DNA of 64,000 nt from the NCBI RefSeq assembly GCF_964204645.1, contig NC_134033.1:6782231-6846230 (forward strand), in the 5' to 3' direction. The notes beneath the pieces are model-generated. The model was not told where the DNA came from. It ran no database searches and saw only the letters and a program-made list of their open reading frames with translations. Source of the stretch: Tubulanus polymorphus (Eukaryota > Animalia > Nemertea). Below, piece by piece: positions 16,615 through 47,818 of the stretch. The translations under genes were made by a program, and so were the position numbers. Positions within the stretch are counted from its first letter, which is position 1, and each line of letters starts with the position of its first letter.

Positions 16615-16624
16615 GATGCTGTAC

Positions 16625-17915: not shown

Positions 17916-18102
17916 ACTCAACTAGCTTGTTAATCTAGTATATTTTTAGTTACATTCTAGTTAAATTTTAGTTATTGGTAGTTGAAATAAAAACAACAAT
18001 ATTTCAACTAGCTTGTTAATCTAGTATATTTTTAGTTACATTCTAGTTAAATTCTAGTTTAATTCTAGTTGCAACAACACAACTAATTTGTTTCTTACAT
18101 AA

Positions 18103-22580: not shown

Positions 22581-23309
22581 AGCTGTTTATACTAGAACAT
22601 GATTCTATTTGAGCCTATATACATTCCATGTAAAGAGCTATGGAATAAATCTATAAATTCACAGCTGTTACAGCTGTTTCTATGACGCCGAGACATATGA
22701 GACATATGCAAACGTGTAGAGAAAATTCTAGAAAGGTGTGCCGGAACCAGATGACGTGGCAGGAAATGAACAGGCGCTGTAACATTACGCTCAGGATATT
22801 ATATCTCTCGAAACGAAATTAGGAGTTTATAGTTTACAATTCTAAATCTAAATGTAAGTACTGTTTTTTGTAGTTATTAGGGCTATTAAATATGAAACCT
22901 TTAGATATATTTGAGTGTATTTAGTATATCTTTTAGATGGCTAGAGTTGCCGCTAATATCTTTTAGATTAATAAAACGCCATACGCATCAAGAAGTGATA
23001 GAGAAACTCAAGATACTCTTTCTGACTGAGGAATCAACAGCAATGGGGATATCGAACCAATAGAAATTAGCACAAGAAACACAAGAATCACCAAAAGATC
23101 GACGAAGAAACTATATAAGAATTTCAAAAACATTAAAACTCCAATGATTAAGTTTAACATTTGTTGATGTAGTTAAATATTTACCAGCAATTGAAAAAAT
23201 GTTTGTAATTATAAATTGTATTTATAGAAATCAAATGATGTATTGGAAGAAACGACTGAACAACTTGTATAATGTATTGTGTAAATCTGATTGGTGAATT
23301 TTTATGTTC

Positions 23310-23640
23310 AGTCGTTTCTATTATGATTAACGCATGCGCATTTAGCAAAACCGGCCATAAATGGCCGCATGTGACGCATGTAACGCATGTGACGAGGACA
23401 TGAATGCGTTTGAATTTTCTATGTTCAGTTGTTTCTATTTTACAGAATTTGCATAATGAATATATAATTATGATTAACGCATGCGCATTAAGCAAAACCG
23501 GCCATAAATGGCCGCATGTGACGCATGTAACGCATGTGTTGTTTCTATTTTACAGAATTTATAGAATGAATATATAATTATGATTAACACATGTGCATTA
23601 AGCAAAAGCGCGCCTGTATGTCCGCATGTGACGCGGGTAT
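23310..23640. repeat. Three imperfect direct repeats with internal dyads
   Basis: ATGATTAACGCATGCGCATTAAGCAAAACCGGCCATAAATGGCCGCATGTGACGC at ~23323, 23470, 23580. Confidence 0.8.
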
Positions 23641-23774
23641 TGTGACTGGTATGATTATCAAGGAATCGAAACAACTTATCAAAGCAGCGAGGAATGAAAA
23701 AGGATGACGTTGGTCGAAGAAATGGAAGAGGATTCTAAAATATTAACCAATTTAGTAAAAAATGCATATAATAA

Positions 23775-24453
23775 ATGGAACCAGAACTAACACAAATTAT
23801 CAATATTACAAATAACACTGGTGGTGTTATAAATATATATTACAAGAAGTGTTCTAAATGTGAATTAGATAAATTAGCTTTAACAGAATTTAGTAAGCGT
23901 AAGATTAGCAAAGATGGTTTTCAATATTGCTGTAAAACTTGTTTTAAACTATATACCAAACAATACCGAGAAGATAATATAGAACATTATAATTATTATA
24001 TGGCAGAATATATGAGAGAAAGATATCAAACAGATCTTAATTTTAGATTAAAACAATGTTTAAGATCTAGATTAACACAATTATTCAACAAAGAAACACA
24101 TTCAGAAACACTATCTAATTTATTGGGTTGTTCAGATGAATTTTTCATATCATGGATAATATATCAATTCGATGATAAAATGAATATAGATAACTATGGT
24201 GAATACTTTCATATTGATCATGTGTTGCCGATTTCTAAATTAAACATGAATGATGAATACAATAAAAAACTTATTTGGGGTTGGAAAAATTTAAGGCCTT
24301 TAGGAAAGAAAGAAAATCAAATCAAATCTAATATACTAGAATACAGTTATATTTAGAACAGTTAACAAAGGCAAAGAAATTTATTGATCAATGGAACAAT
24401 GATCCAAATAATGAACAATACGTTGAGGAATTTGATATCAAGGATCCGAAATG
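23775..24453 (+). CDS. HNH-type endonuclease with N-terminal CxxC-CxxC (NCLDV-like), probably frameshifted near C-terminus
   Basis: CSKC...KDG...CKTC, LRSRL, LLGCS, NYGEYFHIDHVLP, NLRPL...ENQIKSN. Confidence 0.75.
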
Positions 24454-24689
24454 ACTTAGCTGGACAGTTATAATTACTGCTCCTAATAGATAGACAATAG
24501 TAGTGAGATATCAAATAGAATTTAAAATAAAATGTAATAAAAAAACAATAACTTCAACTAGCCATTATTTCTATTTTAATTTTTGATATTTTCTTTTACA
24601 ATTTTTTTCAAAAGAGAATACTTTATATTTTAAATAGATTCAAATAGAAATTCTTTAAATTCAAATAGCTAGTATCAGTAGTCAATCTA

Positions 24690-25309
24690 AATAATCAGTC
24701 AATCAGTAAGAAATCTAAAAAGAATGGTATTGATATTGAAAAAACATTAGATGATTTGGGTATAAGTGATAATAAAGATACAGTTGTAACTAATTGTGCT
24801 CAAGTTAATTGTAATATAGATTATGAAACTATTTATATTGTAAGCATCATCTAGAACTATTGATTGCCGCTGGAAAAACTAAGGAGTTTTTAAATAGAAT
24901 CATTACTTTTCAAGAACTAGACTCTATGAAACCAGATGAAGTAATAAAATATTTTAAGATTTATGAAGAGGCAAGATTAGCTAGAATAAATGATTCTATT
25001 TCAGATGGTATTGTCAAATGTTATTCTAAGTTATGTAACCAGTTAATACCAATTGATGATGAAAATAAATTATATAGTGATTTGAAAAATGACTATTTAG
25101 TTATGACTGAATTACAAAAATGGGTTGGTTATGATTCATTTCAATTAGGATCGGTTATGACATTAATTTCTACTGGTGTCATAACATTTTCGAACATCAA
25201 GCATATGGAATATAAATCAGGCAAGAACGAAACAGATGACGCTGTACTACAACCAAACAGCGAAACAGAAAATGAATCAGAACAAAAATTAACTAAAATA
25301 AATGAGTGA
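24690..25309 (+). pseudogene. Polinton hypothetical protein A (5' disrupted)
   Basis: Homologous to 18103-18633 (IEKTLDDLGI, KHHLELLIA). Confidence 0.75.
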
Positions 25310-25670
25310 TAGCGTTAAGAAAAAGCCTTGATCCGAGAAACAAATTAAATGGGCAAGAGAATTAGGTAAAAGATCTGCAGAATTAAAAAAAGCAAAGAAA
25401 AAGAAATTAACTGATATAAATGAATCACAGACTTTATCTGATATTGATTCAAATAATAATCCATCTGATTCTTCTAATGCTGGAAGTAATTATAAATTAT
25501 ATATTACAATTGGATTAGTAACGGTTATTATATTATCCGGCGTAATATATATATCAAAATTCAAATCTGATGATAAAGATGATTCCAATGACAATGAACC
25601 TATCATACCAGAAAATAAGTCAAATCCTAAAACCATTGAAAATAACCCAAGATTATTATTAATGGATTAA
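25302..25670 (+). pseudogene. Polinton hypothetical protein B with TM segment
   Basis: KKP*SEKQIKWARELG homologous to 18630-19030; hydrophobic LYITIGLVTVIILSGVIYI. Confidence 0.6.
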
Positions 25671-25676
25671 AAGAAG

Positions 25677-26781
25677 ATGAAAAAAGAACAATATTTAAGA
25701 GATTTATATTATAACCCAGAAAGTGAAGTATCATATTCTAACGTTTCAGAATTATGGAATAAAATTAAATCTGATAATGAAAATGGTGCCGTACGGCACC
25801 CACACGGTGATATAAAATATAGTGAATTAAAATCATGGTTACAAAATCAACCAACATATCAAATCCACAAGAAAATGGATAAAACTTATTTAACAAGAAA
25901 AGTAATGTTTTCATATATCGATCAACAATGGCAAGCAGATTTAATTGATATGAAGAACTTAGAGGAATACAACAAAGGATATTTCTGGATATTAAATGTT
26001 ATAGACATATTCAGTAGATACGCATGGTCAATTCCAATCAAAAATAAAACTGGTATAGAAGTAACAAATGCTTTTAAATCTATATTTAAAGAAGCTATTC
26101 CAGATAAGATACAATTTGATGAAGGTAAAGAATTTTATAACAAACATTTAAAAAAAACTATTATCCGATAACGATGTAGACTATTTTTCAACACACTCAG
26201 ATAAAAAAGCATCTATTATAGAAAGATTTAATAAAACATTGAAAACTAGAATGTGGAAATATTTTACTGCTAATGAAACATATAAATATATCGATGTATT
26301 AGATGATTTAGTGAAAGGTTATAATAATTCTAAACATAGTTCTATAAATATGAAACCTATACAAGCTAGAAAAGAAGATAATTCGGAAATAGTTTGGAAT
26401 AATTTATATGGAGCATTTGTTACACATGATTTCGGAGAACCTAAATTTAAAATTGGACAACACGTAAGAATATCTAAATATAGAAAAACCTTTTATAAAG
26501 GTTATACCCCAAATTTGTACAGAAGAAATATTCAAGATTAAAAAGATAATATTAACTAAACCATTCGTTTATAAATTAGAAATCTAAAAAATGGAGAAAT
26601 ATTAGGTTATTTCTATGAACAAGAATTATCACTTGTACCAAATCCAGAGGAAATAGAATACAAAATAGAAAAGTATTGAAAACAAATACTCTTAAAGGAA
26701 AAAAGTATTCTTTGGTGAAATATAAAGGATACGATGATAAATTTAATGAATGGATTTTATCTAGTAAAATTAAAAGAATAA
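25677..26781 (+). pseudogene. Polinton RVE integrase with chromodomain (frameshifted)
   Basis: LYYNP, WQADL, IDIFSRYAW, QFDEGKEF, IERFNKTLK (D-D-E), KHSSINMKP, KYKGYDDKFNEWI. Confidence 0.92.
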
Positions 26782-27370
26782 ATGAATAAAGATTTATTTA
26801 TATTTGAACCGCATAATATGTTAGTTACTGGTGTAACCAATTGTGGTAAAACACATTTCATATTAGATTTGTTAGAAACTATTTATAAGAATCATTTTGA
26901 TAATGTAATATTATTCTGCCCTACTTATGAAATGAATAAAACATATAATAGAGATATAGTTAAGATAAAAAAGTTTATTATATTAAATCCTAAAACAGTA
27001 AAAGAAAATTTAGATAATTGTATAAAAATAGCACTTGATACTTATAAAGGATCAAATACATTATTCATTGTAGATGATTGCGCAAATTTACATGATTCAA
27101 AAGTGAGAGAAAGTGAGTTATGTTATCTAGCTTTCTCTGGAAGACATTTCGGGATAACAACAAGGGTTTTAAATCAAAAATATAATTCAATTGTTAAAGA
27201 CTTTAGGGAGAATATAAGATTTCTAGTTTTATTCTACAATAAAGATAGAAAATCTATGCAACAATCATTGGAAGAAAATCAAATTATACCTACTGAATTA
27301 CATGATGAATATATGTTCAAAATTATTACTGAGATTACAATTTCCCTATGAATATAAATTTATAAAATAA
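26782..27370 (+). CDS. A32/FtsK-like packaging ATPase (C-terminal lesion)
   Basis: Walker A GVTNCGKT, Walker B IVDD, SGRH, LNQ...FRENI. Confidence 0.9.
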
Positions 27371-27877
27371 CTATCTATATATCTATCTAATACGTATTAA
27401 ATACGTATTAAATACGTATTAAATACATTAATACTTAAAACCCCCTTTTTTAAATGAATATTATTCATACAATTTTCAACCAATTTATTTTTATTTTTTC
27501 AACTAATATATGAATAAGTTTGAAAATAAATATTCCTGAAGATGACTATTAGGATATAGTCGAAATAAACTACTATCTCGAAGTTTCATTTTCGGACTTT
27601 TTATTATCATTGTGGGATTCTCTCCTCATCGCGTCAACACGGATATTGTGTTCTACCTATCGTGATTTGAAAATAATAAAGGTTATTTATTACTACTGAG
27701 GTTTCAATATAAATTTAAAAAAGAAATATAATTTAAGGTATTTTCAAATAATATGTATTAGATATGTATTAGATACCCTATTAGATGCCTTAAATACTTA
27801 AAACCCCTTTTTTATTTACTATTATTTTATACAATTTACAACTAATATAATTATTTGAGTTAAATATAATTAATATC

Positions 27878-28738
27878 TTAATCACTTTCATCATCACTCT
27901 CCAATTCACTATCAGACCCTAACAATTTATTCAAATTCTCTACCGAATTTTCTTCTTCAAATTCTCTATTTTTTTTATACTTATTTTTCACCTTTTTTAC
28001 CGCATCATCAATAGTTGTTTCATTGTTATGCTTATTCATCCAATCAAATTTATCATTATTTTCTACTTTATGTTTCATAGAATCTTTATAAGTGTTTGCT
28101 ACTAATATTTCATTTACAGTGTTTGATCCTAATATTTCATTAGCATCGGTTAGATCTAATTCATCTTTATTAGGTGTTGCTAATAATAAATCTTCATATA
28201 TTTTTTCACCATTTAATTTTTGATTTGGAACAAACTTTGAAACATATCTAAATGGGTGTTCTATAAATTCTTTTAAACCAACACGTTCTATAACATTATT
28301 TATATGTACCCTTGTATTCATATGTTTATTCCAATTTGATGTAGCGTTTGAAAATTCACTTTTACAATATCCACAATAATTTCTATTTTCACTAACATTT
28401 AATATTATTTCATTATTAGATGTAGAGGGTATTACATTATTAGATGTAGAAGGTATTACATTATTAGATGTAGTAGGTATTACATTATTAGATGTAGAAG
28501 CTATTACATTATAAGATGTAGAAGGTATTACATTATTAGATGTAGAAGGTATTAAATTACTTAAATTATCAACAACTTCACTTTTATTATTATCGATTTC
28601 TATTAGTTTAGTTTTATAAATTTTGAAAATAGGATCAAATATCAAAGCTATATTACAAGGTATTACATAATATAAACCATCATTATTTTCATGTGTATCG
28701 ATGTATGGAATATGTTTATATACTTTACCTCCTTCCAT
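27878..28738 (-). CDS. Hypothetical protein with IPSTSNNV repeats and C2H2-type zinc finger
   Basis: Intact 286-aa ORF; six 8-aa repeats; CGYC...HMNTRVH. Confidence 0.7.
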   Translation of the reverse strand: MEGGKVYKHIPYIDTHENNDGLYYVIPCNIALIFDPIFKIYKTKLIEIDNNKSEVVDNLSNLIPSTSNNVIPSTSYNVIASTSNNVIPTTSNNVIPSTSNNVIPSTSNNEIILNVSENRNYCGYCKSEFSNATSNWNKHMNTRVHINNVIERVGLKEFIEHPFRYVSKFVPNQKLNGEKIYEDLLLATPNKDELDLTDANEILGSNTVNEILVANTYKDSMKHKVENNDKFDWMNKHNNETTIDDAVKKVKNKYKKNREFEEENSVENLNKLLGSDSELESDDESD

Positions 28739-28770
28739 TTATTATACATATTTTTATTAAAGTTAAAATT

Positions 28771-30018
28771 TTAATACATAACACTATTCAATTGAGAATT
28801 TACAATATTTAATTGCGCGTCAGATATAATATAAATGTGCATTTTGAAATTTTTGATTCCTTTATTCTTTGTCATGAATAATTGTATTCCATCTTTAGTG
28901 TTTTGTAATTTTTTTCCAGAACCATGTAATGAATTATCCTCTGTTGTTCTAAAATCTAACCATAATGCATATTTATTACCGGTATAATAATCAATTTGAT
29001 TAATGTTACAATTTTCAGATGATTTTACGTTTTCATTCATAAAATGTTTTCTAATTTCTGGCCATTGATCAATCATTCTCATTCCTTGGCAAAATATTTT
29101 ATTTGCTATTCCTTCGATAGTTATTTCTTCTTTAGTTATTTCAGGATTATAATAATTATCAACATTTATTGCGCCATTAGTATATGTTGCAATGGTAAAA
29201 ATATTAATATACCTTTAATAGATCTTCTTGGGAAGTTAATATTCTCATTAATTATTTCATCATTTGCATTAATAGTTACGGTTTTAAATGTATCAATATA
29301 ATCATATAATAATGAAAATCCTTGATTGTATTGAGTTTGAATTATACTTGAAATATTTTCATCAGTTACTGTGTCTTATTCTAAACATATATTCGATAAT
29401 TTATAACTCATATCTTTATTAACGCTAGATATTTCAATTTCATTAAGAGGAGCAAATGTTATTTCGAATATAACGTATTCTTGAATTGCGTATTTATATA
29501 AAGGTGCATTGTTATTTATCAATTCAAAGTCTAATGGAATTTTATATTTGCTTCCATATATACTTTTTATCAATTTATCTACAGCATTAGTTAATATTGC
29601 GCTATTAGCTTCTGATCTTAATTCATTTTGGTTTTCTGATTGGATGCCTTGAAATATCATATTATTTCTATTTTTCTTTAGTTAACCATAAATCTTTATA
29701 ATGCATAAATCAATTATAATCATCTAATGAGAAAACTGTTTCTGGACCAATCTTTATAGTTAATTTTTTAATCAAATATCTTCCAACATTATCAACAACA
29801 TAATTATCATTATTACCGATTACTTTTATATCGGCAGATAAATAAATACTATTTGGAACGTAAAAAGTATTTTGTGTTAATCGAGGAATTCTAACATATA
29901 AAGTTTCATCGGGATTGATATTAGAAGGGTTATGAGTAATTATATGATGTGATCTTTCTGCTTTAATAGCATTAGATATTCTATGATTCTTAGAAGGATT
30001 GATATAACTCCCACTCAT
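28771..30018 (-). pseudogene. Major capsid protein (double jelly-roll, Polinton type)
   Basis: ITHNPSNINPDETLYVRIP, NVGRYLIKK, KIPLDFEL, LSNICLE, ALWLDFRT...LHGSG, DAQLNI; ~415 codons; assignment from recalled Polinton motifs. Confidence 0.75.
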
Positions 30019-31448
30019 TTATTTGACAAAAAAATTAATTATTTATTTTTTAACATATTCACTAACCCAAAAATAATAGCACTTACAACTGTAATTAAAA
30101 ATAAAATAATATGTTCAGCAGCAAAGTTAAGAATATTCCCAGCAGATTTCAATATTAAACCAACAATTGACGCAATAACTCCGGGTAAAGCTGCAGCAGA
30201 TTTTTTAGATAGTTCCCATAAATATTTTGCTAATTTCTTTAAACCATCCTTAACTTTATCTTGTATAGAATTATTATCATTCGGGGTTTATCCGGTTTAT
30301 TGGGAGTAGGAGTAGATTTCAGTGAATTTGATATAGCTAAACCTATTGTCGTAAATACCATAGTTACTGCTGTTAGAATTGAAAGAATTGTGATTCCTTC
30401 AAACTTAAATAATAATTTTATTCTATCTTTCAATAATATTTCAGAATTTGGTTTAATTATTAAATCTTTAACAACAACTTTTAATCTATTAATACAATAA
30501 TTATATGATTTTTTTAATAATTTAATTTCTTCTTTCTGAAATTCTATGTTATATTCTAAATTATCAATTTCTTTTCTAAATATGCATTTCTTTTTTTAAA
30601 TTCAATTTCTTCATTAACTTTATTATCTCTATCTAATTTTAATTGTTCTGATTCTTTTCTTGATTTAAATAATTCATATTCTAATTTTAAAATCTCTTAT
30701 ACTTTTATCATGCGCAAATTTATCAGCTTTATTTTGTATACTAATAATTTCTCTAATTGCTTTATCAGAAAATATATTTAAATCTTCTAATTCTTGTTTT
30801 GTTGCATCAAGTAATCCATTTGGTAAAAGTTTTTCAGTTTGAACTCCTCTTGAATTAGGTTTACTAGTTTTGGAAGTTATATTCTGTTCAGAAGTTGTTT
30901 CTGTTTCTAAATTATTATCGATTGTTTCAAATAATTCATTAATTCTTTGTTTAAATACTCTTTCATTTTTAATAATTTCTTCTTGTGTTACATCTTCTAT
31001 TTCATTACTATTTCTTATTCTTTTAATTCTAGATAGGTCTAACTTAAGCAAAGTTGATTCTGCTAATATAATAATCATCTTTCAAATGATAATAATATTC
31101 ACCATCTAAAGATTTTACTTCTTGTACTAAAAGTCTGGCGCCTCTGGCATTTATATTATATCCAGATTTTTCAAATATAGGTTTGGAATTATAAATATAT
31201 TCATTATATTCTAAATTTTGTTTTACTAAATCTGGATTTTCATTTTCAGGATTTAATCTCGATCTAGTTCTTCTATCAAATTCATCTGTTGATTGGCCTT
31301 TAGAACCACTATCTGCTAAATTAGAATTATATGCTGATTCATTACCATCATCAATATTAGTTTCTGCATCATTATAATCATCATCAATATATCCTTCATT
31401 ATTATTTCCCATACCTTCCATTTCATAATCTTCTCCACCTTCTGCCAT
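30019..31448 (-). pseudogene. Acidic/coiled-coil protein with C-terminal hydrophobic helices
   Basis: Fragments 31044-31448, 30674-31078, 30239-30433, ending AAALPGVIASIVGLIL...AEHIILFLITVV. Confidence 0.65.
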
Positions 31449-31463
31449 TTACATAATAAAAAA

Positions 31464-31701
31464 TCAAAATTTAAAATATAATATTCCTCCGATTACAATT
31501 CCTATACAGGTTAAAGCTAATTTAGTATTTTCATGGGATTTATTATCATCATTTAGTTTAATTATTTCATGTTGAATATTATCAGTTTTTATATCTTCTG
31601 ATGTATTGTAATCTTTTATTTTAGAATCATTATTTAATTTAATATTATTAGTTTTAGTTTCTGTTGATTGAATGTGTTTTTTATTTTTTTTCACCTTCCA
31701 T
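31464..31701 (-). CDS. Small protein with C-terminal TM segment
   Basis: LALTCIGIVIGGILYFKF; start region ambiguous. Confidence 0.5.
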
Positions 31702-32763
31702 TAGTTTTGGAGCAGTAATTATCTTTTATTTATATCATTTAATCCAAATGAATTATTTATTGTTGCAGTTTTAATTAGATTATTATAACCAATTATGTTT
31801 CCCATCTTTAATACTAAATCATTAGAAATAATTAATAGATTAGGGCCTATACAATAATTTAATCTAATATGTGATTTATCTAAATAATTTTGATATCTTA
31901 CAATGTTTTCCGGAATCGATCTATTTTTATCATTATGAATTGAATCTTCAAATAATACTTTAAACTGTTTCTGCGCATCGAATGAAGTGTTATCATTTCC
32001 AGTTATTGGTTATCTTGTTTCAACTGGCGCACCTAAAATACATATCAAATAAGTTCTAATAGATTGATTTATTCTTTGTATTCCAGCTTAAGTAAAACTT
32101 TCACTATTTTCTAAAATGAAATTAACCCAACCATTATTATTATCAATTTTATAATTATGATAAGCTGAAATTCTATGCATATAATCAATTCTTTTTAATT
32201 CAAACTCTTCACCAACACCTTGCAATTTACCATGCGCTCTAAAATCGGAATTAATATTTATATTAAATTCATTACATATTTTATAAAACTTAGATAGATT
32301 AATATTATTATCCAATTCTTTAAAATATTTAGACCCGGGTAAAGGACATTCTAATACATTTAATATTATTCTGATTTGAAAATATGTGTGAAATCTAAAT
32401 ACTGTGAGAATTAATTTTAAATCAGAATACTTCAAATTTTTATCTAAGTTATTGAAATGATCATTCCAACTTATTCCACATCCTGTTGTTGCACAATAAA
32501 CAGCAAAATCTAATTGGTTCTGCCATTATTTCATATTAGATTTTACTTTATATATATGATATTCATCTCGAGTAAAAGTAACTTCATATGTATTAAATAT
32601 ATTTTCCATTTTAGAAATAAAAAACTGTGATTCAGTAACATAAATTTCTAAATTAGTTAATGAATTTAAAACTACATTTTTATATGTAATATTTTTCTTA
32701 AAATCTATTGCAGGAATATTATATTTAATTGATTTATTATATTGGAAAGCTTTTGAACCCCAT
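31700..32763 (-). pseudogene. Conserved Polinton hypothetical protein
   Basis: WQNQLDFAVYCATTGCGISW, VFRFHTYFQIR...CPLPG, AGIQRINQSIRTY, DAQKQF; several stops. Confidence 0.7.
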
Positions 32764-32779
32764 TTATATAATTAAAAAA

Positions 32780-33214
32780 TCAATAATTAACTAATTCTTT
32801 TAATAATTTATCTTGTTCTTCAACTGTTATATGACCATTTAAACTTATTATATAATCTAGTGTATTCTTTAATTTATTAATTTCTTTTATATTAGTTTTA
32901 ATTTTTTCTTTATTACTTTTTATATTTAATTTTGAACTTATACCAGTTAAAACACTTGAACTTAATCCTAATACACCAATTGATATAGCTAAAGGTGTTA
33001 ATGGACTGAATATTGCTAGAAATGTTATTACAGAACTAATTGTAACCGAACCACTTATAATAAAATAATATATAATTTTAGATTTTAAATATTTTTTCTT
33101 TTTAACTTTTAAGTCACTTTCAAATTCTAATATTTGTTTTTCTAAATATGTTTTTAATTTAGTTTTATTTATATCATGAGGAATAATATCAATATTATCA
33201 ACTTTATCTTCCAT
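32780..33214 (-). CDS. Two-TM hypothetical protein
   Basis: Intact 144-aa ORF with two adjacent hydrophobic helices flanked by Lys-rich segments. Confidence 0.7.
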   Translation of the reverse strand: MEDKVDNIDIIPHDINKTKLKTYLEKQILEFESDLKVKKKKYLKSKIIYYFIISGSVTISSVITFLAIFSPLTPLAISIGVLGLSSSVLTGISSKLNIKSNKEKIKTNIKEINKLKNTLDYIISLNGHITVEEQDKLLKELVNY

Positions 33215-33234
33215 TTATTTAGCAAAAAAAATTA

Positions 33235-33657
33235 CTAATTAGTAAACTTATGAGCAACAAATATAACAATAACAATTCCACCTAAAATCCATATTATTTC
33301 ATATTTCTGTTGTTCTTTACTTGGGGTATAATAATCTGATAAATTAGGTTTGTATAGATGTAATTTTTCTTTATTTGTTACTGCGTTATATAAACTCATT
33401 GCATCATCAACTGATTGAAAATCTCTATGTGAAATCTTCTGATCATATAGTTCTTTATTGATGTAATCCATATAGTTTTGTCGTTTTTCTCTATATTCTT
33501 CCGTTGCTTTATTATATTTCTCTAATGCTAAGTTATGTCTTTTTTGTTCTGTTAATGATCCATTTTTATCAATATGTTTAAATAAATATCCACCACCAGT
33601 AAATGCTAAAGCGTTAACAATTGCCGATCCTATAATAGTTATAACTGCAGAAGCCAT
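33235..33657 (-). CDS. Conserved Polinton protein with hydrophobic N-terminus and C-terminal TM
   Basis: IVNALAFTGGGYLF...EQKRHNLALE...LSDYYTPS motif set. Confidence 0.75.
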   Translation of the reverse strand: MASAVITIIGSAIVNALAFTGGGYLFKHIDKNGSLTEQKRHNLALEKYNKATEEYREKRQNYMDYINKELYDQKISHRDFQSVDDAMSLYNAVTNKEKLHLYKPNLSDYYTPSKEQQKYEIIWILGGIVIVIFVAHKFTN

Positions 33658-33681
33658 TTATTTAGTAAAATGATTATGCAT

Positions 33682-33897
33682 TTATATGGGAGGAATATAT
33701 TTTTGTTTTTCCAAATAATCAATAGTTAAATTAGATAAAGTAACCGCTAATGTTAATTTCAAAATATCATTTATATCAAATCTATCAACATTAACACTTC
33801 CCATTTTAAATACTTTTTTTAATACCATTGAATCACCAACAGTTCCAAGTAATGCGCCATTATATAATCCAGTTATTATCCACTTATTATCACTCAT
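33682..33897 (-). CDS. Small hydrophobic Polinton protein
   Basis: 71 aa, GLYNGALL...DILKL...DYLEKQKYIP. Confidence 0.65.
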   Translation of the reverse strand: MSDNKWIITGLYNGALLGTVGDSMVLKKVFKMGSVNVDRFDINDILKLTLAVTLSNLTIDYLEKQKYIPPI

Positions 33898-34254
33898 TTA
33901 TTTATCAAAAAAATTACTATCATCAAAATATTTAGTTATCTTATTTATGATTAATTCAACATTTATTTCATTACTAGTTTCATTTGTATATATTTCAATT
34001 ATTATTTTTTTAATATCATCGATGATAAAATCTTCATCTAATTCATAAAATCTTAAAGATTCTCTAATTAAATTAGTAATCTTTTCTACATTTAAAGTTT
34101 CTTTATCTATTGTTGTTTCATACTCAAATGTTTTTTCATTAGAAAATGTAATATTTTTGATATGTGTAATTACATCATTAACGTTAAATTTCATTTCTTT
34201 CTCATGTTTAAAATCAAACCCAAAACATATACTCGGCCCAACAGTTATATTCAT
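33898..34254 (-). CDS. Hypothetical protein
   Basis: 118-aa ORF with TAAATG start; its stop abuts the next start. Confidence 0.6.
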   Translation of the reverse strand: MNITVGPSICFGFDFKHEKEMKFNVNDVITHIKNITFSNEKTFEYETTIDKETLNVEKITNLIRESLRFYELDEDFIIDDIKKIIIEIYTNETSNEINVELIINKITKYFDDSNFFDK

Positions 34255-34270
34255 TTATATAGTGAAAAAA

Positions 34271-35025
34271 TTACTCTTTACATCTTATAACTAATTCATA
34301 TATCACAGGAAAGTTATTCAAATCAATTAAATAACCATTATGATTTCTTATTTCTAATTTAAAATTATTGAAATGTGGAATACAAGGTTTGAAATCACAT
34401 TCAGTTAAATTATAATTTATTTGAGTTCCAAATTGTTTAACATTTTTAGCGGTAAAATATTTAGTATACTAGAACTACAAATTGTTTCTTTAGTTGCTTC
34501 AAAAGTTTTTGTAGGCTCGATTAAATTGCAATAAATATAAAAGTGTGTAAAAGGTATTATATTTGAGCTGCCTTCTGCGTTTCCAGTAACTGTGGGCGGT
34601 TTAATTCCTAACATTTTAGCCAGTGGTTTGTTTACCATAAATTTATGTTGTTCATTAGATATCTTTATTCTTATTTTATTAGTACTATCAATTTTATTAA
34701 ATTTAATTTCAAATACAGAAGTGCCCCCGATTTTCAACCGAGCTCTTCTATTAATTTCCTGCGCTAATGATTCTAAATTATATAATCCTGGTTTCAAAAA
34801 TATATGAAACCATTTATCTTTATTTCTCATATAAATCATAAACCCTCTATGTTCAAAAGTTTTATCTGATATATTATGAAAAGAATTACATAAACTTATA
34901 TTTACTTATATTAAATCTACACAATTCTTAAATTCTCTATCTAATTGTACTAGTAAATTATGAGATTTATAATTTGTAAGTTTTCTAGAATCAACAAATA
35001 TTCTGTATTCTTTTAATTCCACCAT
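34271..35025 (-). pseudogene. Minor capsid (penton-like) protein, frameshifted
   Basis: PGLYNLESL, LAKMLGI, YIYCNLI, C-terminal FKLEIRNHNGYLIDLNNFPVIYEL. Confidence 0.7.
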
Positions 35026-35042
35026 TTATTTTACATATTTTC

Positions 35043-35396
35043 TTATTCGAAATCTATTTCATGGTGCCCTTTTTCATTCTTACCTTTGTATACGAAATAG
35101 AAATCTCCAGAACATAATTCTTCTAAATCTTCACTTGATAATCTATGAAATCTATCCGGTAAATATGTTCTGAATTTATATGTATTTCCTTTTAATCCTT
35201 CATATTCTAAGTGTATAACAAATTTATCTCCATAGTTATTAGTAATTGTATCAATATTTGTAATTAGATATTTCGTATGGATTGTTAATTCTGTTAACTT
35301 TTTGAATTTATAATCTACAGATTTTACATTTGTGATATCTTTAATTCTATCTAGAAATAATTTGTTGTTCTCACTGTGTGTTTGTTTACTCTCCAT
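35043..35396 (-). CDS. Hypothetical protein
   Basis: 117 aa; FKKLTEL...NYGDK...YLPDRF...GKNEKGH; homolog at 19150-19493. Confidence 0.7.
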   Translation of the reverse strand: MESKQTHSENNKLFLDRIKDITNVKSVDYKFKKLTELTIHTKYLITNIDTITNNYGDKFVIHLEYEGLKGNTYKFRTYLPDRFHRLSSEDLEELCSGDFYFVYKGKNEKGHHEIDFE

Positions 35397-35425
35397 TTAT
35401 AATACATATTTTTATTAAAATTTGA

Positions 35426-38400
35426 TTAACACGTTAGAATTCTTTTCATTATCTCGTTCTCTTTTGTTTCTTCTCTTTTAAATTTTAAGTATTCATCTAA
35501 ATTGCAACCATAAGCAACTGTATGAATTCCATCATCCAGAATATATCTTTTATCATCAAATGGGTTTAGACTTATCTTTTCAATTTCTTCAATAAACATT
35601 TCATGATCTTCAGATCTTAAACATCTCATCTTATGTTTTCTAACTTCTTCATTGAATAGACAATTGATGTAATCTTTGAAATGAATATTCTTTTCTACTA
35701 CATTTTTGGATATTCCTTTTAACTTTTTAGATTCATGTTCTTTAGTTTTATATCGATCTAATACCAATGAATTCAATCATTTCTTCACCGCCTAATTCAT
35801 TTTTGAATTTACCGGGAACTTTTTATTATCATTGCTAAACAATTCATGATCTTTAGGATAGTTACTGAAATCAAAATGATGTTTTAATGTTTTTAAATCA
35901 TCAGTTATGTTATCAGTTTTTATCTTCAATATGTAACTGTCAGTATCAAAATATAATATTTTTATATGTTTTTCTCCAAAAAGTGGTTGTAATACATTAT
36001 AATAGAATTCATACATTAGTAATTTTGATAATTCTAAAACTGAAGCGCCAACATAGATTGGTTTATTAAATTTCATTGATTTTCTTCTCATCTTAACTGC
36101 AGCTAAATTTTCATCAAATATTCTGTTACCAATGAACTTAGGATATGATTGTAAATGTCTAATTCTTTTACCATTACTAACTAACTCAATATCATTTCTA
36201 TTACTAATATTTTCACAAGTCTTACCATAGAATGCATTATTCATTAACTTGAAGAAATCTTTCTCGAAATCAGTTTTAGCTTCAGTTCTCTGTTTGGTGT
36301 TAAAATCTATATATTTTTCTAACCACTTAGATTGACTGAATGAAATATATCTATGTACTTTTTTTAGAACCATTCCTTGTTTTAGATAAAACTTTAACAT
36401 TCTATAATGTACTACATAATTATATTTATCTTCTTGAGTTACCATTAACTTTTCTGTATGAATAAGATTTTCGGGTTTAATTCTTTTTTGATAATTTGAT
36501 AATTCTTCATGAGTAACGGTTTTATGTTCTGGACAGTATGCTAGATTTCTAGATTTAAATTTAATATGTTCAGGATATTCTAAATCTACAACAAAGAAGT
36601 AACCAGTATCTGAATCATCTGCAATATCTAGAATTCTTTTCTTCCAATCAAATTTATCATTATTTTCATTCTGTAAAACTTCACTTATTTCAAATACTCC
36701 ATAAGGTTGTGGTTCCATCATTGCCCAACCATACAAATTATTTGCATCTATATATAATAACTTATATCCAGGGTTATCATTTACATTGAAATATCTATCA
36801 CCTAATACACCTGAAACTCCTCCTCTTATAGATTTTTCAAATGATAATAATTGATCTATATTTGTTAACAAATCCATTTTTATATCTGTAAATTTTAATC
36901 CACAATCCCATGTTAAACCTGGTGATGAATAACAATGACATAGATCAATATTGAAATATTTTAGGTTTACATCTCTAAACCTTTCGAATATATCGGTTAA
37001 TAATAATACATCTGATTTTAAATATAAATCTACTAATTGCCCATGATTTTCTATTTTGAAATGATTCCAAATATTCAATGTTCTATTATATACTTCATCT
37101 TTAACATATTCATTTTTTAATTCATCATAAAATTGTTCTTTTAATAATTCAGTTATATTGAAATCATTATGTGATTTATAAAATGAATATGGAATTGCTC
37201 CTTTATATCTCATTAATTGAAAATCATCATTATTTGGATAGTGTTGTTTTAATATTTTTAATTCATCATCAACTAATGATTTTGATAAGTTATCTAATGA
37301 ACTATTTAAAAATCTATATGAATCTATAAATCTTAGGCAACCAAATTGGAATGATATATAATTCTCAGATGTTTTAGCTAACATTCTAAATTTATAAGTT
37401 GGTATTTTATCTTTTGATCTATTTGAATTTAATCTCTCTATTTCATTATTGATTTCTTCTATTTTATGGCATAACTGTTTGATGAATTAATGTGCATCAT
37501 ATCCTGATAGATTATGAAATATAACTGGTACAAAGTTAATTTTCTTAGCTTGTAAGTTACAATTCGCATGTGCAGCGCCTCTAAACTTTCCATTCAAATG
37601 ATCATGGTCTCTTACTTTTTTATCTTTATAATTAAATATCTTTTCACAATAATAACATTTATCTGCAAACGCAAATTCTTCTTTATCTTCTTCTGTCATT
37701 ATAATTTATATATTTGTATTCAATAATTTACTAAATCTTATTTCATATTCAATTAATAAGTCACAAAAATGATTGATAACATTTTCATTTCTATAATCAT
37801 AATATTCACTTTCAATTAGTTCTGGATAATCAGATTTAATATATAACCCGAAAGCTGCAGCTGATCGATGAATCTTTTTAATAGTATTTGTTATTGGTGC
37901 TTCTTCTGAAAAATCATTTTCATTAAAATTTAATTTCTTTCTTTTATAATATATTTCTTTTCTATCTTGATCGGTTAATTCTTTATTTAATGATTCAAAA
38001 TCTCCATATATAAGAAATGGAACTTTATTTTTGTAATCATATTTTTTGAATTCTAATATTTTATCTTTTTCATTTGGTAAAACTAATTTACAATAATCAT
38101 GATTTTCACATAATTGTTTATGATTTAATAATGTACTTTCATTACTGAATCTATGTAAAAATTTTCTACAAAGATATATTTTATGGTGATCATTTTCTGA
38201 TTTAAAAAATAAATCGATTTGTTTAATCCACATATAATGATTTTCATAATATAGTATATCTATAACATCGTTTGAATCATAATTTTTTGATAGATATAAA
38301 GGTTCTAATGTATAATGTTTTATGTTGTTACCTTTTGTATTTGGTAATTTGATTAAATCAAATACATTTATTCTTAAATTATTATCTCTTTCTATTTTTG

Positions 38401-39454
38401 GGATGTTTTTAATTATAACAGGATACTTATCTATCTTATAATTATTTTCAAATTGTTTATAATGAGTTAATCTAAAACTATGTTGTTTATAATCTTCAAC
38501 TGGGTGTAAACAACTTATTATAGCCCATAGAAAACATTTATCATCTTCATTTTGTACATTTATTACAGCATTAGTTTTAAATGGTAGTTTAATATAACTC
38601 GATGCTTTAATATCTGGTTCTTTATAATATGATACATTATTTTCATCGATTGGTTTTGATTTAGTTAACTAATTATATTTTGTGTTATAAACATGTAAAG
38701 TCATAAATATTATTTCATCAAATATTAAACCAGATCCTTCAAAATATATCTCTTCTATTTTAGTTTTTACTTCATTATAACATTTATCTAATTTATCATT
38801 TATATGTTGTTTTGAAATAATATGTTGTGAATGAGAATTTATATTATATATTGGTTTATCTTCAGATTTTATGAATTTAACTTTAGAAGATATACTTATT
38901 TTAGGATATTCAACATCAGTTATTATTTTTATTATTTCTTTCATATTTTCTAAATGTTTTTTATTTTCTTCTAATGTTTTTCATTTATGAAATTTGAACT
39001 CGATAGCTGCTGGGCCAATATCACTTTTAAATGCTTCGGTTATCTCTATATCTTTTTTATTATCTAATGAATTAATATATTTTCTTACATCTTCCATGTA
39101 TGGTCTTTTATTGTTTAGATTATTTTTTATGCTTTTAATTGTCTTCTGTTTCTTATCATTATCTTTATCAAAATAATCTTCACCTAAAATATCATTATTC
39201 TTATTTCTAATATGACTTTTAGATTTTAAATGTTCATTATAATATCTTTTATCACTGAATGATTGATTACATGTATCACATTTGTATGTTTCTTTTTCAT
39301 TCTTTAATTCATCTAATTTAGATTCTAATATATCATCTTTATATTCTAGTTTCAATTTATTCTCTAAATGTGTTTTAGTTTTATTGTGTCTTGCTTTTTG
39401 GGATTTATCTATATTGATATTACATGTTGGGCAGTAGTACTTATTTGCTTCCAT
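35426..39454 (-). pseudogene. Protein-primed DNA polymerase B (intein-free), frameshifted
   Basis: N-terminal zinc fingers, YGDFES (ExoI), EndoVII-like CYYC...DHDH...AHANCN, FHNLSGYD, DSYRFL, YIDANNLYGWAM, KLMNNAFYGK, YFDTDS, FDDKR. Confidence 0.95.
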
Positions 39455-39508
39455 TTTAATACAAAATTTTTTATTAAAATTGATTTTAGAAGTTCAATGA
39501 TTTATATC

Positions 39509-39893
39509 ATGCATTATTTCAATCACACTTTACTAACACTTTTAATGTTTAAAAATCTAACTCACACAAATATGAATATTGAAATAATGTTGTAAATATA
39601 TACTTTTATATTGAATAATCTGTCAATTTAAATGTTATTTATGTATATGATTATTTTAAGAGTAATAGGGGTAATGGGCTTTCAGGTTAAAGGTTGAATG
39701 GTCGAGTTCATTAAAAAACAAAACATTAAAAAGTAATTTAAAACTATAATATATTTTCATAACCATGTGTATTTCAGTTGAATAATAGAATGATTATTAT
39801 TATTAAAATATATTTGATTATATGAATTTGTGTATTGTAAATAAATCAATTGGTCGCGGAGCGGAGCGGTAGCGAAGTGGAGCGACCAATTGA
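39509..39893 (-). repeat. Right TIR, truncated at hairpin apex
   Basis: Reverse complement of 22197-22580 with few mismatches. Confidence 0.9.
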
Positions 39894-41674: not shown

Positions 41675-42422
41675 ATGAAATATGAGAAAACGTGTCCAGA
41701 TAATAAAGAAACACTTGAAAAGTTGGAAAAACAATATAATGAATTAGCAAGAAAAACATATTATTGTAAATATTGTAAATTGATTATCTATATAAGTAAT
41801 TCAAATCTACATAATAGAACAATAAAAAATAAAGAAAACGTAAGTAAATACCAAGAACTTAATGAAGATCTATTGCCAAGATATGATAGAAAAAAATGCC
41901 CACAATGTATTTATGAGTACTTAAGACAAGAAAATTCTGTGATATTTTCTAATGAATTTGGATGGCAAAGAAATTTATGGGGTAATAAAAAAACTAGAGA
42001 TATTCTTATAGAACCAAAATTAAAATATCTAGATGAAATGTTTAAGATATTTTCTATGGAATATCATACACCAGAAAATAAGCAATGGATTGAAAAAAAA
42101 ACCTAAAGTAACAAAAGAAGATATAAGAAATATAAAAGAAACGTTCACAAACATATTAAAATATCATGTGGATAATAACATAACAGATTCAATTAATTAT
42201 GAATTCTGTTTAAATAAGATTGTACATTTTTTAAACATCGATATTATAATTCCGTTTGATGAATTAACGAACAGAAAGAAACAAAGAGAGCTAGATGAAG
42301 TGTGGAATAACATAGAACTTTATTTAAATGAGAAAAATGAAATGGAAGAACCTAAACAATTAAATAAAAATGAAGAAACCAGTAGTGATGTAGAGTATGA
42401 TGATCTTGATTTTATGTTTTAA
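41675..42422 (+). pseudogene. VLTF3-like (poxvirus A2 family) late transcription factor, frameshift in A-run ~42095
   Basis: CKYC and CPQC motifs; C-terminal SINYEFCLNKI...KKQRELDEVWNNIELYL resembles the VLTF3 C-terminal pattern (recalled, not searched). Confidence 0.5.
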
Positions 42423-45043
42423 TAACCATAAGGTAATGTTTTTATTCCATCATCCAAAATATATCTCTTATCGTCGAATGGATTTAAGCTAGTTTTTTCA
42501 ACTTCATTAATGTACATCTCGTGATCTTCTAAACAATTCATTTTATGTTTCATAACTATTGAGTTATATAAACACTTAATATAATCTTGAAATTCTATAT
42601 GTTTGTCAACCACATGCTTTGTGATTCCTTTTAACTTTTTAGCTTCATGATCTTTTGTTCTATAACTATTCATTTTACTTCTTATCCCAACAAATACAAT
42701 CATTTCATCACCCCCTAATTCATCTTTAAATTTACCAGGAATTTTTTTATTATCATTGCTAAATAGTTCATGATCTTCTGGATAATTGCTATAGTCAAAA
42801 TGATGTTTTAATGTCATTTGTCTTGATTTTTAGTATGTAACTGTCGGTATTGACCGCTATTAATGGAAATCCACAGTTAAATGTTCCATCATCAGTTGAT
42901 AAATCATAAACATAATCTGATGGCTGATATATTTCAAATAAATCTTTAACTTCGTCAGTTATTTCTATTTCTACATGGCTTAAGTTAAAGCAATTTGGTT
43001 TAGATTTAATCAATCCAATATTCATATTAAAACCTAATGAATTGCATAATAGATTCAATCCTGATATACCAACTTTTCCTTTTTGTGCAAATGTTATTAC
43101 TGGAGAACTCGTAAATTTTTTAGCACCATCTGCTGCATAAAATCCAATGAAGAACCATCTTCTTAAATTATATTTTGCATTTAATACATAATCTGGAACT
43201 ATCTTTTCTTTTGTTGAAGTATTACTTTTCACTAATGCGTGAATATAGAATTCATCATTATATTTTGTGGCAAAATCTTTAGGATTATTTACAAATATTC
43301 TATAAACCGCTGATGATTTCATATGATCCACGATTCTAAATATTTTGTGTGAATAAACATCTTCACAATATTTTTTAATTCTTTCTAATAATTTCAATTC
43401 TTGATTACATAAATACCAACGATATTGAGTGCTATTAACATATTTATACACACTTGCTGAACCATCACCCATGAAAAATCCTGTGATAAAATATTCTTTT
43501 TCTTCTAATGTTTCAGGTTCTATATCATAAATATTATCAATTATTTCATCAAATTACATATGATTCATTCTTTGGAAAAATCTTTTATGTAATAATTCAT
43601 CTCCAATTTTTACATCAGTTGGTTTTATTTCATCACCATTTCGTTTAATTAAACTATGATCTTCTGTAACATCTACAAACCCGAATATAGTTCTAACTCT
43701 ATAAATTTTCTTATTCGTTTTATGCCTAATAATATCTTTTAATTTTTTCCATCCATTTCTTGTCCAAACATCCATTAATCCATTTATTTGTATCAATTCT
43801 TTTTTACCATACGAAATATAAAGTTCATTTTGTTTTGGAATTATTTCTGAAATTCTTCTAATTAATATTTGGTTATTGTATTTTAATAATATTGGGGTAT
43901 CAGCTGTTACAGAATCAAAATATAATATTTCAATATGCTTTTCCCCAAAAAGTGGTTGTAAAACATTATAATAAAAATCATACATTAATAATTTTGATAT
44001 TTCTAAAACAGTTGAACGTATAAATATAGGTTTATGAAATTTCATTGACGTTCTTTTTAATTTTACCGCGGTTAAATAATCTTCAAATCTCTTATTTCCC
44101 TAACTGTCTTGGACTTGATTGTAAATGTCTTAATCTTTCACAATTATTTACTAATTCAATATCATTTCTATTTCTAATATTTTCACATGTTTTTCCATAA
44201 AAACTATTATTCATTAATTTAAGGAAATCTTTTTCAAAATCTGTTTTAGATATGGTTCTCTGTTGAGTATTAAAATCTATATATTTTTCTAACCACTTCG
44301 ATAGATTAAATTCAATATATCTATGTACTTTCTTTAATTTCATTCCTTGTTTTAGATAAAATTGTAACATCCTATAATGAACAATATAATTGTATTTATT
44401 ATTTTGAGTAAGTATTAATTTTTCTGTAAAAACTTGATCTTTCGGTTTTATTTTTTTCTGATATTCACTTAAATATTTATCATCTACGGCTAAATGTTCT
44501 GGGCAATATGGTTTCTTGTGTTAAACTTGATGTTATCAGGATATTCTAAATCAACTACAAAGAAATAACCAATTGGTGCTTCATCTTTTAAACCCATAAT
44601 TGCACTTTTCCAATCAGTTTTATCATCATTATCAACTTTTTTTAATATAACAAATCTATAACATTTTCATCATCATAATATTCTGTTAAATATAAAGCTT
44701 CTAATGTATAATCTTTAATATTTTCACCTTTTGTCTCTGGTTATTGCATTAATTCGAATATATTTATTTTTAAATTATTAACTTTTTCTATTTTAGGAAT
44801 CATTTTTATAGTTACAGGATATTGATCAATTTTATATAATGTTTCATATTTCCGGTAACATATTATTCTAAAACTATGCGTAATATCTTCTGTTGGGTGT
44901 AAACAACTAATAATTGACCATGGAAAACATTTATCATCTTCATTTTGAACATTTATTACTGCTTTTGTTGTAAATGGTAATTTAATATAAGATGATGCTT
45001 TAATATCCTTTTCTGTTGTAAAGTTTGAATCATTTTTAAACAT
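42419..45043 (-). pseudogene. pPolB copy with intein; internal deletion removes exonuclease and motif A
   Basis: SSYIKLP...VINVQNEDDKCF joined near 44640 to GYFFVVDLEYP; KLMNNSFYGK; YFD-[intein]-TDS; GKFKDE; FDDKR. Confidence 0.9.
42849..43913 (-). mobile_element. Intein with LAGLIDADG homing endonuclease in pPolB motif C
   Basis: Block A SVTADTPILL, block B VDVTEDHSLI, ITGFFMGDGS and FIGFYAADGA, block F YVYDLSTDDGTF, block G LIAVN|T; 1065 nt in frame, with one stop at 43554-56. Confidence 0.92.
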
Positions 45044-45133
45044 TTTATTACTTTTTGATGTTTTATTTCTTTTTGTATTATAAACATATAGTATATATTT
45101 TGTATTATAAGATGTATCTGTTTTTCAATTCAG

Positions 45134-47818
45134 CTCCAGTTGCCAACCTGTTGGCTAAACGATTCGGTTTCCGCAAGGTATTCCTCGTCGCTTCGATGTT
45201 AAACAGCGCAGCAGTTTCACTGACATCATGTGTAGATAATTTGTACGTTGCGATAGTCCTGCGAATATTAGCAGGTAATAAAACCCACCAGAATCATTAT
45301 CAGTTTGAGCTCAGAGTTTAATGGTTTCGCTCGCCTAAGCTGATGCGAACGCAAAGCCTGGTCGCGCTTCCTCCATTGGTGTAATATTAATTCGGATGAA
45401 GACAATACATAACCATTTGAATTAACAGTATAATTTATTGACGTTTATTCAACTCTCTGATGATATGGAATTCATCAATGCTTCTGACATATAGTAAACA
45501 ATTAATCTCTGAACGTGATTAACATCGAAATTGCAACCCGGTAAAGGCTGGCTTATGTCGACAAGCAACGCGACGCCTACCGACGCAACTGGGTTTATCG
45601 CCGATTAGCGGCTATTAGCGGCCTACGAGATGCCGCCAGTTGCTGCTCTATCGGTTCGACATAAGCCGGCTTGCGACGGCAATCCGACGCCTACCGACTC
45701 CTCGCAATCCGTATTCGGCTAGTTGCCCATGTTCTACTCCGGCCTACGGTAGGCGGACAGTTGCTTTCGATCGCAACGGACATAAGCTCATATGCGACGC
45801 GACGGAACTGAGTGCAGGGGTTCCAGCCAATATGACACCGCATATACATAGTACAAATTATCACCGCTAGTTAGCGTCATTCGTAATTAGTCATAAACTT
45901 TCAAATTCTTGTAGTTCAAAACGTAAAGCAAACCTTCAGCACGGCAGAGGACTGGACCGAAGATCTAGAAACGAAATTGGCACTCAGGTCGCCCTTACAA
46001 CTGCGACTACAACTGGAAGCGACTGATTCGAGCAACTGACAGCGATCGTCAGCGACTGGTTTTTTGCCAGTTGCGGCGACATGAGCGCGTGTACAACTGA
46101 CACCGACGGGTCGGTGACGGAAAAAGTGCCAGTCGCTATGAGTTAAACATGTTGAACTTTCAGCAACGCGTCGCAGCGACTACTACTAGTTGTGTAGCGT
46201 TTTTGTCGACCTGAGCGATTCTGCAACCGGTTTCCGATATCCAACTAAAATGACCTTCAGTTTGCCGCTGTTTATGGGTTCGAGTCCTGCTGTATAATGT
46301 TTACTAAAACAATTTTATTTAGGCCACTTTTTGTCAATAACCGACTATTTGTTCATTCTATAGAACACTGATAAATAGAACAGTCTCCAGACTCTAAAAA
46401 GTGATTTTTGAACGAAAATGACAAACTACTTTATCGCGCCTCGTGATTAGCAGATTGAATCGAATCGAATTGACGAATCCCTGCAATGAGACGTGGCTTA
46501 ATTTGCTTAAATCAAGAAAAATATCAATATATTCAGTCAGAAACGAAAATGCGCGCTGATAAACATGGGTGGCGCTATTTTGAACAGATCACGTGATAAT
46601 TTGAATCGTGCGTTGCAGCAACGGCCGTAGATTAAGATAAACCGGTCGACAACTACTTTAACTTTTAAACATTTTTATTCTGCTTTTATTCTCCATATAT
46701 GTTTTCACCTGGGGATATGTAGCCTAATTCACTGTAAAGTCCATGAACTGACTAAAGAAAGAAGTGCGGCAAGCAACAACGGCACGAACCATTCGCAAGC
46801 TAGGATGATTGATTCGCCACGACCTAATAGTTCACATTTTCTTTCAGGATATGGTCTCGCAGTACAAATACATTCACTACTTCCATATTTGTTATGCCGT
46901 TTCCGAAAATACGCTGCCTTTGCTCAATGTATCAGAAGCGTTGCGCTGTCAGCAGGAACCTTCGTGTTCTCATTCCTTATCAATTACTGTTTGGGAGAGT
47001 ATGGCTGGCGTGGGTGCTGTTTGATTATCGGTGCAATCGCATTTCAGCAATGGGCGTTAGGGTGTATGTTCACCCAATGGTCCGATCGATCTTCTTTGGA
47101 ACTACATGAAGGTTTTCGCAACGAGCATAATCATAATAACGACAGCCCCAAGCGTCTTCGCGATATTCATCAATTAGATCTTTTTAAACGGAAAGTATTC
47201 TTGGCATTTGTTTTACACTCATTTGTGTTACTGGGAGCCGTCTCTACGATCTACGTGCATATTGTGTCGGGCACCAAAGTTCTATTGGAAATATCCTCTG
47301 AGCAGGCTAGATTTACACTTTCGGCTATTGCTTTGTCGAATTTAGTCGGGCGTTTTATCGTTCCGCTAATGACTAAACACCCCAAGATAGATTCACTCAC
47401 ACTGCATATGATTCTCAACGCACTTCTCGCGATCCAAGTTTGTGTTATCCCATTCGTGAAGGGCAATGTGAGAGCCCAATTAGTCAGCGCGTCTGTAGGA
47501 TTTTTATTATCTGGCTTTGGTTGTTTATATCCGCTAATACTATTAGAACTGTTCGGAAATGAATATCTGTTTATGTCGTATGCTTATAGTGTATTTTTCG
47601 GTGGATTCGCGTATCTGTTCGGCGCTCCAGTTGCAGGTACATAAGATGATTACCAAATTTATTGATATTCAAAATTGTGCCGATTATTGACTACGTTTTG
47701 AAACTGGTCTTTTTCAGGATGGCTTTACGATATTACACAGGACTATGCGATATCGTTTTATTTTTGTGCCGGGTTGCTGATAACAAGTGTTGCGATATTA
47801 ATTCCTGGATGCGTTTAA
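45134..47818 (+). CDS. MFS monocarboxylate-transporter-like (SLC16) gene, last three exons (45134-45274, 46848-47636, 47718-47818)
   Basis: GT-AG junctions in matching phase; APVANLLAKRFGFRKV, EYGWRGCCLIIGAI, NLVGRF, LELFG, GAPVAG|WLYDITQDY. Confidence 0.8.

Follow-up and report, generated by a model that had tools for sequence, protein, structure and literature searches.

In the 64-kb stretch of animal DNA analyzed here (the window), the DTDS catalytic motif of a Polinton DNA polymerase is split by a full-size intein with a LAGLIDADG homing endonuclease domain, now broken. Intact copies of this intein are predicted to splice and likely home, and the intein appears to have been acquired once, likely from a large DNA virus; we regard this explanation as probable. 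The intein lies in a decayed Polinton, remnant A, of which the following features were recognized.

42849..43913, minus strand: intein of the pol-c allele type, 355 codons, with LAGLIDADG domain, pseudogenized (assigned by residues, profiles, and fold)
43557..43913, minus strand: N-terminal splicing (Hint) region with Ser1 and the block B TxxH (residues 83-86)
43554..43556, minus strand: premature stop in the intein frame (codon 120), specific to the remnant A copy (carried by 11 of 236 reads)
43008..43508, minus strand, limits approximate: LAGLIDADG homing endonuclease domain with two motifs (Asp150, Lys237, Asp262)
42849..42941, minus strand, limits approximate: C-terminal splicing region with block F Asp337, terminal Asn355, and penultimate Val
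43914..45124, minus strand: N-extein of the remnant A protein-primed PolB (pPolB), preserved as the fragments 43914-44099, 44092-44520, and 44741-45124 and carrying an internal deletion near 44634-44637
42419..42848, minus strand: C-extein of the remnant A pPolB, starting with TDS and then frameshifted into 42419-42829
42033..42422, plus strand: VLTF3-like transcription factor ORF beside the remnant A pPolB (Pox_VLTF3, 29.7 bits, cutoff 25)

On the minus strand, 43913-42849 encodes an insert that begins with SVTADTP, ends with LIAVN, and is in frame with the flanks HIEILYFD and TDSYILKIK. The preliminary description had reported a 355-codon insert between the Asp and Thr of the motif, and this frame was confirmed, with one stop. 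In canonical intein splicing, an N-O acyl shift at Ser1 is followed by transesterification to the +1 residue and cyclization of the terminal Asn. Passages of PMC549080 agree on the residues of this chemistry. The residues of a class 1 intein were found on the N side (Ser1, Thr83, and His86) as well as on the C side (Asp337, Asn355, and Thr at +1), and the endonuclease domain has kept the acidic Asp150 and Asp262 with Lys237 between them. The penultimate residue is Val instead of His, an assisting residue that is frequent among inteins without strictly defining them, so the earlier statement that all splicing blocks are present was overstated, whereas its two LAGLIDADG helices were recovered as both motifs.

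Profile searches, in all of which stop codon 120 of the window intein was entered as X, gave matches above the cutoff for the intein N-terminal profile TIGR01445 (28.3 bits, cutoff 24.5) and for LAGLIDADG_3 (22.7, cutoff 22.5). The Pfam Intein_splicing match was significant (E 2e-5) but below the cutoff (24.7, cutoff 35.8); the same profile scored above the cutoff in the relative P0273. An AlphaFold2 model built from a 12-row alignment (mean pLDDT 69) was compared with solved structures by Foldseek, and the ten best PDB matches were homing-endonuclease inteins (best E 2.5e-13, TM about 0.3-0.4), followed mainly by I-DmoI with an rmsd of 3.2-4.1 Å in most rows. At E<=0.001, 2024 representatives among the library proteins were related to the window intein, and the best named matches in the viral library were mostly giant-virus DNA polymerases. 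The identity of 43913-42849 as an intein is far beyond chance.

This copy has been decaying and cannot splice because of the stop at codon 120. Approximately 13 near-private substitutions were counted in 474 nt of the window intein when it was compared with genomic reads. The surrounding pPolB is also frameshifted and has lost ~1.57 kb, which corresponds to 36668-38241 of the sister gene in a second Polinton, element B; thus, the earlier view that this copy is dead is correct. Neither an rve integrase nor a packaging ATPase was found within remnant A, and no inverted repeats were found for it. In a polymerase tree of 18 rows, the remnant A polymerase grouped with that of element B (support 99/96). 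This grouping, together with the PF03175, rve, and A32 ATPase matches of element B, bears out the assignment of the intein host as a Polinton pPolB. Element B and its genes are as follows.

22197..39893, no strand assigned: sister Polinton B, intein-free, with inverted repeats of ~400 bp (22197-22580 and 39509-39893, 96% identical)
35426..39493, minus strand: fragmented pPolB of element B (PF03175) with the empty site LYFD/TDSY at 35945/35944 (the slash marks the insertion point here and below)
25671..27351, plus strand: split rve integrase together with an A32-type packaging ATPase, both in element B

Element B lies ~3 kb from remnant A. The two polymerases share 71-73% identity on their N side. 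At the insertion site, they agree in 17 of 17 nucleotides toward the N side and in 14 of 15 toward the C side, which makes element B a plausible target of the intein. Codons close to the site were not significantly more often identical than the others (22/28 vs 105/166, p=0.14). No clear target-site duplication was seen at the ends of element B. Two candidate capsid fragments of this element (28771-30018 and 34417-34905) had no Pfam or PHROG match, with a single-sequence model at pLDDT 47, and no protease was matched among the 33 proteins scanned. Element B also carries an endonuclease VII-like ORF (23775-24356, plus strand). Other Polinton pieces in the window are an integrase/ATPase block at 16549-18633, 78% identical to element B, and a piece at 40909-41335, 86% identical to 34269-34688 of element B. 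A satellite with a 118-bp unit, present in 131 copies and inverted in places, occupies 48494-63998, and very high-copy short repeats are found at 41495-41623 (palindromic, MITE-like) and 45542-45980.

The nature of the host was indicated by the gene next to remnant A.

46631..47644, plus strand: host MFS/monocarboxylate-transporter-like gene (11 matches, all nemertean)

All 11 matches are named as monocarboxylate-transporter-like proteins of Tubulanus polymorphus, ten of them at 52-63% identity. Since the flanking gene matches solely nemertean proteins, the host is an animal, most likely a ribbon worm or something related. Part of the window stretch was present in 4 of the 10 listed runs, which have one species label and belong to one study. 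Read depth was estimated from the raw genomic data of a second study with the same species label, of which ~12% of a run was read; this run may be the source of the assembly itself. The depth was 3-13 in the unique flank (mean 8.7, six bins). In the intein it reached 116-215 at 90% likeness, counted over the three bins that contain intein sequence only, and 207-265 at 85% likeness. At stop codon 120, 225 of the 236 reads had a sense codon and the remaining 11 corresponded to the window copy. Roughly 20-30 copies of the intein are thus present in the genome if the flank is single-copy. Together with the nemertean-only matches of the transporter gene, the multicopy intein in raw genomic reads upholds the earlier placement of this intein in an animal genome.

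Just beyond the N junction the depth rose to 561-613, and 212 reads had loose ends at 43910/43914, indicating the presence of intein-free alleles. One contig joint removed a net 1065 nt, which equals the length of the intein. A further 233 reads ended at 44009, the point where element B starts diverging from remnant A, and most of the empty alleles in the genome therefore probably belong to a B-like family.

Giant-virus or protist DNA joined to animal sequence, or a contaminant, would agree with the finding that no single read or contig from ~12% of the second-study run spans the distance from the intein to the host gene; related contigs are also mis-binned elsewhere (P0274 and L118-L122). Such an assembly artefact is nevertheless exceedingly improbable. 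The host protein is a pPolB and not a viral RNA-primed PolB, many diverged copies are present in the raw reads of the second study, and an empty sister element lies close by. Moreover, a 513-nt contig with one difference spans the right edge of the element at a depth like that of the host-gene contig (22.5 and 20.8). On these grounds, the contaminant reading was rejected. As for the mis-binned contigs, the P0274 record is labeled as a lucinid-clam symbiont bin and is suspected to be clam DNA, and L118-L122 are contigs of archaeal or bacterial MAGs with a viral-type PolB that carries this intein, probably binned virus contigs.

Relatives of the window intein were found in other Polinton polymerases. 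Among the best 24 of 42 near-length matches, 15 had pPolB flanks as judged by BLAST, one had an RNA-primed PolB, and in eight the flank was too short to class. Searches among longer proteins, together with cluster members, yielded uninterrupted pPolBs of 1476-1693 aa that carry the intein, and PF03175 was found in the intein-bearing P0273, P0276, and P0284. A metagenome scan returned 80 loci, the best of which (L038) is a Polinton-type pPolB; the other complete inteins there reside in RNA-primed PolB. In total, 29 complete Polinton-type inteins forming nine groups at 80% identity were collected, and those other than the window intein are 43-61% identical to it. The N-terminal Ser is present in 28 of the 29 and the TxxH in all, the first LAGLIDADG pattern is kept in 28 and the second in all, and 26 end with His-Asn; a few relatives have altered junction residues.

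Filled and empty alleles of closely related polymerases were compared in the P0273 cluster (136 members, 15 listed). Seven of the 15 listed sequences contain the intein, six lack exactly the 346 intein residues at 94-98% identity, and two are uninformative. All ten diagnostic columns that separate filled from empty sequences are located at 1035-1040 and 1391-1431, and filled and empty sequences differ by 19% over the 53 residues that follow the site, compared with 1.5% for the far N region. Polymorphisms distant from the site (178, 200, 233, 863, 1458, 1491, and 1520) occur in both filled and empty sequences, and variation in the far N region was 0.7% among filled and 2.4% among empty sequences. 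This local divergence in 13 protein sequences, which come from the P0273 cluster and not from the window genome, is the pattern that repeated homing with co-conversion of the flanks would give, although plain recombination in either direction may also produce it. The empty alleles P0381, P0383-P0385, P0387, and P0388 are unusually variable in and around the catalytic motif and form three haplotypes, possibly an escape from the endonuclease.

The insert might instead be a domesticated Hint/LAGLIDADG domain that does not splice, or a conditional switch on polymerase activity. The loss of the penultimate His in the window copy and the altered junctions of a few relatives would agree with this, but we consider it very improbable. 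A PolB with a split DTDS motif should be inactive when unspliced. The junction residues are conserved across the family, and the alleles of the P0273 cluster that lack the insert are precisely empty.

It is also conceivable that the intein still splices but has lost homing, in which case ordinary recombination between Polinton families, or the substitution of segments that lack the intein, would have produced the filled and empty alleles. At the protein level the tract of the P0273 cluster fits either direction, no conversion signal was obtained between remnant A and element B, and the empty reads seem to come mostly from the sister family, with the loose ends at 44009 matching the B/A divergence. 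Loss of homing is nonetheless quite unlikely, since 28 of the 29 complete sequences across the nine groups retain both endonuclease motifs, the tract is centered on the insertion site, and the filled alleles are more uniform than the empty ones. In addition, the intein is found in a distant pPolB group. The P0284 polymerase is <=22% identical to other pPolBs, whereas its intein joins those of the window and P0276 (95/92), suggesting that the intein moved horizontally from one Polinton group to another. Intein presence or absence requires four changes on the 18-row polymerase tree, from which L130 was left out because it has no matching site motif and in which the row P0383 was cut ~5 residues off register.

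The origin of the intein was addressed with 190 distinct complete relatives, of which 165 reside in RNA-primed PolB, nine in pPolB, and 16 in unclassed proteins; many of their source contigs bear giant-virus MAG labels. All trees were calculated with LG+G4 and not with a mixture model. The tree without outgroup contained 66 of 154 representatives, and the outgroup tree, a quick tree, and the AU test were based on 61 rows (20 of the 66 were dropped as redundant and 15 were added). The Polinton inteins formed one clade in every tree (support 100/99). Nearest outside this clade are giant-virus PolB inteins including that of ChoanoV1, and the larger group includes the Mimivirus intein. Nesting of the Polinton clade among giant-virus inteins was supported by 98/96 without outgroup, and with an archaeal-type outgroup the nesting branches had supports of 81/62, 88/97, 80/95, and 81/90, all unstarred. 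The quick tree placed the Polinton clade outside most viral inteins, and in the AU test a position outside the viral inteins was not rejected (p=0.387). The preliminary description had proposed acquisition from a large DNA virus and had named nesting among NCLDV rather than archaeal inteins as the phylogenetic sign of it. Both careful trees agree with this proposal, and the quick tree and the AU test leave the nesting short of statistical significance. Transfer from a virus to Polintons is likely, although the nesting is not statistically established (AU p=0.39).

Composition gave no sign of a recent arrival, the GC3 of the intein (0.14) matching that of the host polymerase (0.14-0.15). The identities of inteins and exteins are largely parallel across Polintons, which fits long vertical inheritance. 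Judged from these sequence comparisons, the best reading would be that the intein was acquired once, long ago, from a large DNA virus, which we hold to be quite probable.

An intein that is old in Polintons, either drawn from a prokaryotic or phage source shared with the viruses or passed from Polintons to viruses, is unlikely. The result of the AU test for the Polinton inteins with the archaeal outgroup, the quick tree, the fully host-like composition, and the divergence of the inteins in step with that of the polymerases would all be in line with it. On the other side, the clade is nested in viral inteins in both careful trees, and the Polinton inteins have a C-terminal ending of the GF(P/E)LIV type in common with one viral subgroup that includes ChoanoV1. 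The viral diversity is also far larger, and the archaeal relatives are only 23-26% identical.

Outside the Polintons, inteins of the same family are inserted in the D-x-D motif of the topoisomerase II-like proteins P0132, P0231, P0238, P0244, and P0278 (the host being Pfam-confirmed for P0278); they form their own clade (100/97), suggesting that the intein spread into a non-homologous gene through a comparable D/TD or D/CD site. P0111 is a Pol delta-like PolB with the intein at YGD/TDS and a C-terminal zf-C4pol match (E 1e-4, below the cutoff), and is possibly a cellular protist polymerase. The pol-c inteins of archaeal PolB genes (PI-PkoII, one of the best-matching solved structures, and L123, L125, and L126) have the same fold and insertion site as the window intein, but they share the low identity given above and are separated from it by a long branch (100/100).

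The closest known systems are the pol-c inteins of Mimivirus (APMV) and other Nucleocytoviricota, which occupy the same site, YGD/TDS there and YFD/TDS in Polintons. The use of this motif-C site by Mimivirus, as the preliminary description had it, is confirmed by the insertion at D/TDS, and passages of PMC549080 describe the pol-c site as well as a precedent for an intein in an insect iridovirus. Two viral inteins of this type (P0362 and P0298, the latter from ChoanoV1) likewise have Ser/Asn/Thr junctions and a LAGLIDADG domain, are 351 and 359 aa long compared with 355 for the window intein, and are 37-38% identical to it. The penultimate residue is Lys in the Mimivirus intein and Val in the window intein. 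In contrast to the Mimivirus-type carrier, which is an RNA-primed PolB of a protist virus, the carrier in the window is a protein-primed PolB of an integrating animal Polinton, and the Polinton inteins form their own clade apart from the viral ones.

Passages of PMC10710043 describe inteins in viral-like polymerases on nuclear scaffolds of algae and labyrinthulomycetes and in Anaeramoeba, which are likewise virus-borne and located in eukaryotic nuclear genomes, and viruses are proposed there as intein vectors. Those carriers are giant-virus-like or cellular genes of non-animals, whereas the carrier in the window is a multicopy self-synthesizing animal transposon with filled and empty targets together. 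Nuclease domains (HNH, VSR, and GIY-YIG) have been described inside Polinton pPolBs in passages of PMC10748475, PMC11071308, and PMC12220804, and a passage of PMC11071308 suggests that they stem from intein invasions. These passages name no Hint-domain intein, whereas the insert in the window comprises a complete splicing domain in the active site. Term counts gave zero occurrences of "intein" and "LAGLIDADG" in PMC10748475 and of "intein" in PMC8502044. Among the full-text matches listed, none described an intein in an animal genome or in the pPolB of a Polinton, and the passages of PMC13768754, PMC5718144, and 10.64898/2026.10.13.758929 contain none either. The supposition that an intein in animal Polinton pPolB had not been described before thus stands for the matches listed. 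A known intein allele is recorded here from a host gene of a new kind and, within the literature searched, from a new kingdom.

The following course is proposed for an intact element. Splicing would start with the acyl shift at Ser1, helped by block B, and the attack of Thr+1 and the subsequent cyclization of Asn would restore DTDS, so that the element would need splicing for its replication. The endonuclease would cut intein-free pPolB genes of Polintons that reside or replicate together in one nucleus, and repair would copy the intein with short flanks into the cut allele. The weakest step would be the direction from giant virus to Polinton, which may have been taken during co-infection of one cell. 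In its full extent, this picture is of working mobile inteins in animals that derive from giant viruses, are spliced in animal cells, and home between Polinton families, even those with distantly related polymerases, in or toward the germline, with empty alleles maybe diversifying their catalytic motif to escape; we favor it only slightly.

The intein carrier is a virus-like element and not a cellular gene, and virus-borne inteins are already known from passages on non-animal nuclear genomes (PMC10710043) and insect iridoviruses (PMC549080). A passage of PMC5784728 states that inteins are absent from metazoan genomes, a statement that would need qualification given an intein family present in many copies in animal Polintons. 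Since the active site of the polymerase is divided by the insert, the existence of intact copies implies that the element depends on protein splicing to replicate. The coexistence of filled and empty alleles in one genome makes the cycle of invasion, decay, and loss of homing elements testable in an animal, and the intein family would mark an exchange of genes between giant viruses and the Polintons of animals, which would imply that they shared a cell.
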